From the UHGV virus genome UHGV-0099614: a stretch of 28,758 nt of DNA; one strand, given 5' to 3'. Made by a program: the position numbers. How positions within the stretch are numbered: the stretch's first letter is position 1; the number at the start of each line of letters is the position of its first letter. This document shows, piece after piece, positions 9,001 through 12,000 of this stretch. Source of the stretch: a virus.

Positions 9001-12000
9001 TGTGCCCATAAGACACAATGTTCTCTAATTTAGTGTATGCTTTATTGGTTACGAGAAGACCGTAAGACGATCCCGAACCTTTAAGTGTAATGTCCCCCAG
9101 ATAATCATAGGCGTGTACACGTTGGGTTGCCCCGACTGTATCACCGAGCATCTTTAAGTTGAAATCCGAGGCATGGCAGTTAAATATCGTTTCTGCCATA
9201 TTTTCTCCGGAATAATGAGCACGGACTCCTGTCGAACCAATAAATTTAGCGTCATAGTTGCCGTAATCAAGAACGAGTGGTGACGCGATATCGTACACCC
9301 CTTGCTTTATTTTTAATGTTCCACCGAAAGGCCACGATGTAAGCGGGTCTTGATATATTTCATTTTTTATTGCAAATAGCTCCTCTTGGAGATTTTTGCC
9401 GCTATTAGTGCCAATGTGAGCAGCTCCTTCATCTGATTGAAGTAACTGCTTTAACTGATCAGGATCGTACTTCAGCACATTCTGAAAATAGAACTGCTGC
9501 GAACCATACGCATCATATACAGCCATTGAATGGCCTTGCTCAGTTACAAATTTGGCAATCTGCCCGTTGTACACAGGATATCCGGCAGCATTGATAACAA
9601 TTGGCTGAGAAACAGGGACGTGAGATCCGTCTTCATTCTCTACATAAACCTGAATCTGGTTTTCAGGATTTACCGGGTCAGTGTCAATTTTTCCGATATA
9701 AATTTTGCCATTGGCTACGGCTTTAAAAGAACGCGCCATAGTGAAGAGTTGCGAAGGCATGCTGACCACAACATTTGCGGCGATATCTGACATTTCATTG
9801 CTCCAGACGAATGATATGATGCAATCATGATGTGATTGCATACCGAAATGGCACTATTGAATATTTATCCAGTAGGTTACGATGCCATTCCACCCAACTG
9901 GTGAGGCATCAAGGATGTACAGCAAATACGACGAGGCACAGTTTCACTTGAGACTTCCGCATGAACTCCACGCGAAAATTAAACAGTGTGCGAAGATGAA
10001 TAACAGTTCGCTGAACTCAGAGATAATTGCAGCGATTGAAGAATCATTGGCTAAACAAAGCTCTGCATCAGTTTACATTGACGATGCAGAGCGTATGGCA
10101 GAACAACAATCTGATATGGTTAAGAAAATTGTCTTTGATACGCTCAAGGAGCTATATAAAAAAGACAGCAACTAACCATCCGTGGCTTTCCGTTACTTCT
10201 GGTTATCATCACTGTTCATCCAGTACATGATGCCTAGCCTTGATATGGTTTTCTTATCTGATTCTGGAAGTGAGTTGTAAAACGAGCGCCAAGCAGAAGA
10301 GCGTCTTACAGTTGTATCAACGATGCTTTCTGGTGCTTGTTTTACTGCCAGCCTTGCTGCTTTCTGGAATTCTGGTGAACGGAGCAAGGTTTTTCATGAT
10401 CGTCTGCCACTGCTGATTTTGCAGATCTGCAGCATACTTCTGAGCTTCTGCTGCATACTTTGCGCTTTTATCAGAACTGCCACCTTTCCCGCCTTTTTCA
10501 TGGCAATAAGGTTCCTCGCCGCGCAGTTTTCTGCCCAGCTTAAATGCATATAACATGGCTATCTCCCGTGATTCAGGAAGTCGATTAGTTCTTCGCGTGT
10601 GGCGCTGTAAAAAGTCACGTCATCCACGCCTTTAAAGTATTTCTTGATGGTTCCGACACGCTTAAGGCCAATCATTGCGCAGTACATCTGACCGTGGCGG
10701 AATTTGCGTGCAGCGAACGATGTTACGCACTGAACGGTGGTGTTAGTCAGAATGTATCGCCAGAACGCCAGCCCGATTTCCTTGCTGAATCCACGAACCT
10801 CTGGCAGGTACATGGCGTGGCAATCGAATGTCAGCGGCTGAATCTCCTGATAGTAAACAATGCCGCCGAACTGCCCGTGCACGTTCACCTCAAAGTAACG
10901 GCAATCATGTTTATAGTCGTATCCATCACCGTTGTTGCTCCCGGCAATAATGTCAGGGTGATTTCCGACTGCTTCGATCAGGTCGATGTTTCGCGTTGGT
11001 TTGAACTGAATCATTACTGCTCCGCGATTATCTTGATGGTTGTGGCAGTAAACGCCGCACCATTTGACTGAATGGTTAACGTGCTGCCATTTGTGGCAAG
11101 AAAGCCGTCTTTATCCACGCTGAAGAACGTAGCTAACAAGATGTTATCGGTTGTTGTCGCCGAGTTGCGACTGCTTACCAGTGTGTCAGGAACAGAGCCG
11201 GAAAAGGTTAGCTGCATTGACCTGTTGGCGGTTCCGCTGGGCCACGTCCCGACGATCGACAGCTTGAAGAACAAGGTTTTGTTCTCGTTGAACACAACCA
11301 TCTTGTTGTTAACGGTGTCGAAGAATGGTGCCAACGTGCCGGATGACGGCGTGAGCGTTTTCAGCAGGCTAACAAGGTTGGTCGGCGCTGTCGGGATGGT
11401 TACAGATACGCCAGAGTAAACAACCTCTGACTTCTTGCGAGTAGTGGCATACTCCAGAGCATCGATGCGCGTTTCATGGTCTGAAACCTGCGATTCCAGC
11501 GACTGAACTCTGGTATCAAGCGACGCAATATCGCTTTCATTCTGAGCGATTCGCGTTTCATGTTCCTGAAGAGTTGATTCTGCCTGGCTGATTCGCTCCT
11601 CATGATTAACAAGCGTTGCTTCCGCAGCAGAAATTCGCTGCTCATGGTCAGCGAGAATCACATCCTGCTCATCGTTTCTGACCTGTGCATCATAAGCGCC
11701 CTGTCCGGCCTCGTTGGCCTTGTTCGCCACGTTACCAACATCAGTACCCTGTGCGATAACGTACAGCAGATATGACTGCGAGAAGATATTGCGTGGAAGG
11801 ACTGATGTGTCGAGCCGCGTAGCCTGGATGATTACCGGCACATTGAGATTCGAATCAGCCATTAACATGCCTCCATGCCTTGCCATTTACAATTCTACTA
11901 ACCTTTGAATTGTGAATTCCAAATAATTTAGCAACTTCACACTGAGGAAATCCATTGGCAACCATTTCTTTTATCTTTATGACATCATCATTAGATATTT

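Follow-up and report, generated by a model that had tools for sequence, protein, structure and literature searches.

The window analysed here, the whole 28,758-nucleotide stretch of the UHGV virus genome UHGV-0099614, contains a gene for a repressor of the Mnt family that lies divergent from, and directly beside, the tailspike gene of a P22-like prophage (Table 1). In the immI region of phage P22, mnt is accompanied by a control region (Omnt, Oarc, Pant and Pmnt) and by arc, sar and ant, upstream of the tailspike gene, gene 9. The product of the mnt-like gene combines the two parts of the Mnt family: an N-terminal Arc-like DNA-binding domain (PF03869 Arc, 2.5e-12, residues 7-49), which aligns residue by residue with residues 8-49 of Arc, and a C-terminal tetramerisation helix (PF11423 Repressor_Mnt, 3.4e-14, residues 57-82). 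Matches in the PDB agree with this, both to the N-terminal domain of Mnt (1MNT, 3e-17, residues 3-76 of that entry) and to its tetramerisation domain (1QEY, 1.7e-8). Translation was assigned to the ATG at 9915, which follows the Shine-Dalgarno (SD) sequence GGTGAGG (9900-9906) and coincides in alignment with the start of P22 mnt. The in-frame upstream ATG at 9882, chosen in the Sf101 and RefSeq annotations, was rejected; it falls inside the predicted -10 element of the mnt promoter. On the other side, the tailspike gene, 85% identical to the tail protein region of Shigella phage Sf101, was taken to begin at 9793 rather than at the end of a longer, mechanically called open reading frame (ORF) that reaches 9841.

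The original prediction for this locus had described an intact mnt gene separated from the tailspike gene by roughly 120 bp, with arc and ant missing, and all of this stands. The intergenic region measures 121 bp, too short to house ant, and P22 Arc, Ant and SieA, used as tblastn queries, matched neither the window nor the Sf101 genome significantly. An Oarc-type TAGA-N5-TCTA site is likewise absent from the region upstream of mnt. Compared with 81 relatives, the reading frame of the window carries a private substitution, R31S (10007 G>T), and a rare one, R25C. Arginine 31, which precedes the SxN motif with which helix B begins, is kept in all 80 other relatives, in the Mnt proteins of P22 and L and in Arc, whereas the window has serine. 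In Arc, this arginine belongs to the buried R31-E36-R40 salt-bridge triad.

The arrangement is widespread. The segment 9600-10378 has 98.3% nucleotide identity with the functional serotype-converting phage Sf101, and the same tailspike-mnt junction is found in phage IME10. A junction comprising the tailspike start, the intergenic region and mnt reaches a coverage of at least 80% in 223 of the 5426 complete Escherichia coli genomes searched (about 4%), among which the best match to the window has 98.2% identity and none is exact; it is also present in 80 IMG/VR contigs. More broadly, an orphan mnt divergent from the tailspike gene and lacking arc and ant occurs in phages L, ST64T, ST160, 720R6, VSe13 and JEP4. 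This variable region has been named the "ant moron", and in ST64T, ST104 and Para1 it comprises nothing but mnt and a single gene whose function is unknown (Villafane et al., 2008; PMC2629481); the orphan-mnt arrangement has also been described by Zaworski et al. (2020; PMC8022706). In the window, too, the homologues of gene 16 and gene 9, inside the late operon, flank an mnt that has neither arc nor ant beside it. The locus belongs, in slightly decayed form, to a type of arrangement known from P22-like phages.

The original prediction had also placed a Mnt operator in the intergenic region. This proved partly right: a palindrome of Mnt type lies at the position of Omnt, but it is not the P22 sequence and it is mutated in the window. 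The Omnt palindrome of P22, AGGTCCACGGTGGACCT, has 0 matches in the window at three or fewer mismatches. Comparison with P22 immI reveals, on the other hand, that the control regions are homologous, since the stretch that leads from the operator up to the mnt ATG aligns base by base with its P22 counterpart and brings the putative operator into register with GTCC-N5-GGAC of P22 and GACC-N5-GGTC of phage L. A palindrome of this 4-N5-4 design is located 72-77 bp ahead of the mnt ATG in every phage compared, and its boxes covary with the beta-strand of the repressor. The strand PHFNFRM is associated with GTCC-N5-GGAC (P22, epsilon34 and Pluralibacter), PQFNLRL with GACC-N5-GGTC (L, ST160 and 720R6) and AQFHLRL, the strand encoded in the window, with TACC-N5-GGTA (Sf101, JEP4, VSe13, Escherichia sp. 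E1V33, Buttiauxella and Serratia). TACC-N5-GGTA occurs only once in the 38.7-kb Sf101 genome, at the Omnt position, and there is no second site in that genome or in the window. Because of the homology to the Omnt position and the covariation with the beta-strand, we infer that TACC-N5-GGTA is the cognate operator of this Mnt class, with a specificity different from that of P22 Omnt.

The consensus operator of the AQFHLRL class, CATACCGAAATGGTACT, has one match in the window, with 1 mismatch. The right box, GGTA, has become GGCA through a T>C change at 9852, which is private among 53 distinct upstream sequences and falls on the box position that separates P22 from L. R31S and this change may affect Mnt and its operator, respectively. 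The coincidence of a private substitution in the repressor with a private substitution in its putative operator fits relaxed selection and decay in a dead prophage, with compensation as a possible alternative. A relative from Citrobacter has decayed further, having a frameshifted mnt together with TACC...AGTA. A further palindrome, CACC-N5-GGTG, overlaps the SD sequence of mnt; its arms are conserved and its loop is variable among relatives of the AQFHLRL class, and it is absent as such from P22, L and 720R6. This element could be a weak hairpin that sequesters the SD sequence or a second, low-affinity site.

To compare promoters we used a simple sigma-70 weight matrix, calibrated on the whole window, on which the annotated P22 promoters Pant and Pmnt score 16.7 and 14.3 bits, respectively. 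The Pmnt homologue is kept: TTG of the -35 element and TAnnAT of the -10 element are invariant over a ten-phage alignment that includes the annotated Pmnt of P22, and the scores are 10.5 bits in L, 9.2 in JEP4 and VSe13 and 8.5 in Sf101 and the window. Pant, in contrast, has decayed. Its -10 hexamer, TATATT in P22, is replaced at the strictly homologous position of the window by TAAATA (9867-9862), and by TATATC, TGCATC, CAAATC or CGAACC in other phages that lack arc and ant, while its -35 hexamer, TTGACA in P22, reads ATGGCA, TCGGCA, CAGGCA or ACGGCA in such phages. A 2-bp deletion creates the combination ATGGCA-17-AATACT in the Sf101 type, which appears as AATATT in the window. This version matches the consensus at 8 of 12 positions and scores 6.8 bits, a value reached at 0.15% of combinations of position and spacer, or about once by chance in a region of this size (127 nt), and a consensus scan of the region reported no leftward promoter. 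Thus the Pant-like promoter that the original prediction had aimed at the tailspike gene finds no support; as far as the hexamers can tell, the geometry of Pant survives only as a fossil, its decay accompanies the loss of arc and ant, and there is no sign of an active promoter directed towards the tailspike gene.

As a family, the orphan mnt genes do not look like relics. Among 54 distinct coding sequences, non-synonymous polymorphism (pN) is 0.013 and synonymous polymorphism (pS) is 0.087, giving a pN/pS of 0.15 and indicating purifying selection; polymorphic codon positions number 33 at third positions as against 10 and 11 at first and second positions. Of 81 close relatives, 79 have an intact mnt and 2 a broken one.

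The remainder of the intergenic region would encode a hairpin of the tailspike mRNA leader. Its inverted repeat is perfect in the window, and in 46 of 75 relatives the arms instead read ATGCAACCA...TGATTGCAT, which leaves C opposite A, a mismatch, on the plus strand and allows U.G pairing in the tailspike-sense RNA. Two relatives carry a compensated C-G pair; of the further single changes, three are wobble-compatible on the minus strand only and two are disruptive. Altogether, 98.6% of alignment cells pair on the minus strand. A shuffle control of the pairing was uninformative, as the close relatives contain no double changes. Escherichia sp. E1V33 has a different sequence at the hairpin, with a G-C to T-A double change, and P22, L, JEP4, 720R6, Buttiauxella and others have an unrelated hairpin, CCGUAGC-N3-GCUGCGG, which again contains U.G pairs on the minus strand only and lies upstream of the tailspike SD sequence by an equally short distance. 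Of 30 distinct sequences, 22 fold more stably in the tailspike sense. This handful of events, which gives modest support, suggests that 9819-9841 is a hairpin in the 5′ leader of the tailspike mRNA and not an operator. Such a hairpin may act in stability, processing or translation. It was rejected as an intrinsic terminator, as it has no U-tract and was not called by the scan, and other copies of the 9-mer arm amount to scattered one-mismatch matches in no pattern. Nearly all of the P22-like relatives examined have a hairpin just 5′ of the ribosome-binding site for the tailspike, and its sequence comes in at least three versions that are unrelated to one another. We found no description of a leader hairpin in the literature searched on P22-like phages.

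The surroundings of mnt were mapped by blast against Sf101 and by domain scans. Ahead of the tailspike gene and mnt, the window has mlaA, a gene of the formate/nitrite transporter family, an integrase gene, gtrA, gtrB and a third membrane protein gene. Beyond mnt, in the deletion scar, the last 60 or so codons of the gene-16 homologue are fused near 10375-10378 to the beginning of gene 7: the P22_gp7 Pfam match covers positions 1-65 of the 230 in the profile, and the megablast alignment breaks at query positions 776-779. The remainder of gene 7 has been lost, together with gene 20 and the larger part of gene 16. The phage parts that survive further along are gene 10, an inserted HNH endonuclease gene, an Sf6-type tail needle gene, gene 14, a small holin-like ORF and the first 70 or so codons of a lysozyme-family gene. 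Genes for terminase, portal, scaffold and coat proteins, gene 20, most of gene 16 and the late antiterminator gene were not found in the blast map against Sf101 or in the domain scans. These extensive deletions confirm that the prophage is cryptic, as had been proposed.

In P22, gene 9 is expressed by read-through from PLate (PMC2629481), and P22 deleted for the interval mnt-ant is still viable as a phage (PMC11016777); because of this viability, expression of the tailspike appears to be independent of immI. In the intact relatives the late operon ends with the tailspike gene; mnt and the gene-16 homologue of the Sf101 type converge across a gap of 17 bp that contains no terminator. Late-operon transcripts of the intact relatives would most likely read through into the tailspike gene across the antisense strand of mnt.

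Taking these features together, we interpret the locus as what is left of the immI or "ant moron" control module in a P22-like prophage of the Sf101 type, a reading to which we assign a probability of about 0.68. A tetrameric ribbon-helix-helix repressor of the Mnt family would be made from the Pmnt homologue, and its cognate operator, of Omnt-like design and with TACC-N5-GGTA specificity, would lie directly upstream of the Pmnt -35 element. The most likely present activity of Mnt at the locus is then binding beside its own promoter, that is, autoregulation, with Pant, the divergent promoter repressed by Mnt in P22, decayed and the tailspike gene served by read-through. Several points weigh against this interpretation. 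The assignment of the operator for the Sf101-type Mnt draws on homology and covariation. The Pmnt spacer of the Sf101 type, at 15 nt, is suboptimal, and the true mnt promoter could lie elsewhere, with TTGCAT-18-AATATT or, from the consensus scan, CTGACA-17-AATGAT as alternatives. The weak leftward site overlaps the Sf101-type operator in the geometry of Pant and Omnt, and there may be some Mnt-sensitive leftward transcription in the Sf101 type. Finally, autoregulation alone leaves the strong purifying selection on an orphan repressor unexplained.

Two alternatives would give the intergenic region a direct part in tailspike control. In one, a functional Pant-like promoter reads straight into the tailspike gene and is repressed by Mnt bound at about +5 to +17 of the transcript. 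The site ATGGCA-17-AATATT is indeed the positional descendant of Pant, with the operator just downstream of its -10 element as Omnt is in P22, and in a remnant that lacks the late antiterminator gene a local promoter would be the sole route to tailspike expression; moreover, it has been suggested for P22 that the moron, and perhaps Mnt and Arc, may influence the amount of PLate transcription that reaches the tailspike gene (PMC2629481). We nevertheless regard this alternative as improbable. The match is at chance level, its hexamers are unconserved among relatives without arc and ant, unlike those of Pmnt, and the viability of P22 without mnt-ant implies that the tailspike does not depend on immI. 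The control of tailspike expression by Mnt envisaged in the original prediction is accordingly unlikely, because a credible leftward promoter is lacking. The other alternative takes the 23-bp palindrome ATGCAATCA-N5-TGATTGCAT as the true operator, for Mnt or another regulator, through which the tailspike gene is controlled. It is the most conspicuous symmetric element of the region, it lies between the tailspike SD sequence and the mnt promoter, and each of its arms has an outward-facing TTGCAT. The palindrome is perfect, however, in only a minority of relatives; the DNA mismatch of 46 of the 75 relatives, and other arm changes too, are tolerated as wobble pairs only in the tailspike-sense RNA; JEP4 and VSe13 keep the AQFHLRL strand and TACC-N5-GGTA with the palindrome wholly absent; and other P22-like phages carry unrelated hairpins at the same position. 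An operator at this site is, in our view, very improbable indeed.

A different set of alternatives concerns why mnt has been kept. The orphan repressor might act in trans, by repressing the antirepressor promoter of incoming phages of the same operator class, whereby the prophage would be shielded from induction, or by regulating a second target elsewhere. Purifying selection on a gene whose classical target is gone, its intactness and wide occurrence, and the documented cross-talk of antirepressors between prophages (PMC7380047) speak for such a role. Against it, no arc- or ant-linked copy of the TACC class was present among 89 phage records and 53 genome loci, neither the Sf101 genome nor the window offers a second TACC-N5-GGTA site, and the antirepressor-like genes close by in JEP4, E. 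coli HS and Serratia are under a divergent repressor of their own. We consider a trans role unlikely. A related and tentative idea, on which we would still not rely, is that mnt and its operator form a self-standing module which selection has kept after the loss of the antirepressor and which has a function not yet described. The pN/pS of the gene, its occurrence among complete E. coli genomes (about 4% of them) and the existence of at least three co-evolved classes of repressor and operator are the basis for this idea, and the function could be trans-immunity against superinfecting phages that carry an antirepressor or, together with the leader hairpin, gating of transcription into the tailspike gene.

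Table 1. Coordinates of features at the mnt-tailspike locus, elsewhere in the window and at other loci compared (positions refer to the window unless a locus is named).
Feature	Position	Strand	Description
mnt-like gene	9915..10175	+	86 aa, ribbon-helix-helix repressor with Mnt-type C-terminal tetramerisation helix; beta-strand AQFHLRL
Tailspike gene	8081..9793	-	P22-type head-binding domain, Pfam Head_binding 7e-65; SD GGAG 9804-9801
Intergenic region	9794..9914		Between the divergent mnt and tailspike genes
Putative Mnt operator	9839..9855	.	17-bp register CATACCGAAATGGCACT; core TACC-N5-GGCA at 9841-9853; positional homologue of P22 Omnt
Pmnt homologue	9857..9883	+	-35 TTGAAT 9857-9862, 15-nt spacer, -10 TACGAT 9878-9883; predicted start near 9890
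Decayed Pant remnant	9860..9888	-	-35 ATGGCA 9888-9883, 17 nt, -10 AATATT 9865-9860
Putative leader hairpin	9819..9841	-	Perfect 9-bp inverted repeat with 5-nt loop, ATGCAATCA-N5-TGATTGCAT; about 13 nt upstream of tailspike SD
CACC-N5-GGTG palindrome	9891..9903	+	Overlaps mnt SD
Deletion scar	10176..10556	-	3′ end of gene-16 homologue (10193..~10378) fused to first ~65 codons of gene 7
Gene 7 fragment	10317-10556		
Gene 16 fragment	10193-10387		
Homing-endonuclease-like gene	11855-12388	-	NUMOD4/HNH_3
Lysozyme-family fragment	13668-14132		Fused to gene 10 start
Late-promoter region	14312-14540		Retained (blast against Sf101)
Integrase fragment	17983-18279		
Replication-protein-like ORF	20343-21395		
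PIN-domain protein gene	22149-25775	-	1094 aa; PIN domain of TPR-GreAB-C-PIN system
Resolvase gene	26755-27381		
Leader hairpin, other loci	L001 6219-6241; L003 ~1080-1100; L094 ~2905-2930		
Antirepressor-like flanks of mnt	L005 2770-4689; L092 4014-6777; L093 3049-4960; L097 1072-3431		
Tandem mnt-like genes, CUS-3	L091 2211-2740		

Other features of the window and of the relatives deserve a brief record. A second deletion has fused the lysozyme-family fragment to the start of gene 10. The homing-endonuclease-like gene is situated between gene 10 and the Sf6-type tail needle gene, where Sf101 has no such insertion. The gene for the large PIN-domain protein adjoins one for a HetE-N domain protein, and next to the prophage remnant this region probably constitutes an island of anti-phage defence; the resolvase gene, the integrase fragment and the replication-protein-like ORF lie near these defence-like genes. 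Phage CUS-3 contains two tandem mnt-like genes, with the beta-strands PQVNLRL and PHFNFRM, upstream of ant and without arc, the second of which has lost its upstream operator region. Genes for antirepressor-like proteins (P22AR C-terminal domain, KilA, Rha) are found on the far side of mnt in JEP4, E. coli HS, EC17CM7 and a Serratia prophage. They are convergent with mnt and have at their head a separate repressor, divergent from them, of the helix-turn-helix or ribbon-helix-helix type. This flank resembles another immI-like module, distinct from the first, within the same moron.

The window itself is of little consequence, being an ordinary and partly decayed copy in which the proposed rewiring of the tailspike gene is not borne out. 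What novelty is left lies in how operators and recognition strands fall into classes, in the selection that acts on orphan mnt and in the conservation of a hairpin in the tailspike leader. The correspondence between the beta-strand residues of Mnt and the operator boxes in three classes offers a series of natural specificities for a repressor that is a classic model, and the evidence of selection sharpens the question, raised for phage L, of what an orphan mnt does. A useful by-product concerns annotation. The mnt products of Sf101, P22, epsilon34 and SE1 are labelled "partition protein ATPase" in RefSeq (NC_027398, NC_002371, NC_011976 and NC_011802), yet these proteins of 83-97 residues contain Arc and Mnt domains only, and the label is an annotation error that has spread; the papers on Sf101 and Kapi1 make no mention of an mnt gene.

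Among known systems, P22 immI has a repressor of the same fold, to which the protein of the window is 46% identical overall and about 80% identical within the C-terminal helix. In both, mnt sits between genes 16 and 9 and is opposed to the late operon, and the control regions, with their Pmnt hexamers, are homologous. The locus differs from immI in lacking arc, ant, sar and sieA, in its decayed Pant, in the placement of mnt directly beside the tailspike gene and in its class, TACC-N5-GGTA with AQFHLRL as opposed to GTCC-N5-GGAC with PHFNFRM. The resemblance to P22 Arc is confined to the N-terminal domain and to the 4-N5-4 design that the operator has in common with Oarc, TAGA-N5-TCTA; unlike Arc, the protein of the window has the C-terminal tetramerisation domain of Mnt, and its putative operator occupies the position of Omnt and not that of Oarc. 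The "ant moron" of ST64T, ST104 and L shares with the locus an orphan mnt about 120-135 bp from a divergent tailspike start, the lack of arc and ant, an Omnt-like palindrome and a Pmnt homologue that are kept, and a degenerate Pant. Phages of this type nevertheless belong to the class PQFNLRL with GACC-N5-GGTC and have a P22-derived leader hairpin, and the L type further carries orf62, a small ORF, and a terminator behind mnt, whereas the Sf101-type mnt ends 17 bp from the convergent gene-16 homologue. The closest counterpart is the gene 14 region of Shigella phage Sf101 (NC_027398, 14284..14577), which has the same operator class and hairpin and near-identity from the tailspike start to the 3′ end of gene 16, but which belongs to a complete, inducible phage with GGTA in the operator, arginine at position 31 of Mnt and a full late operon including the antiterminator gene.

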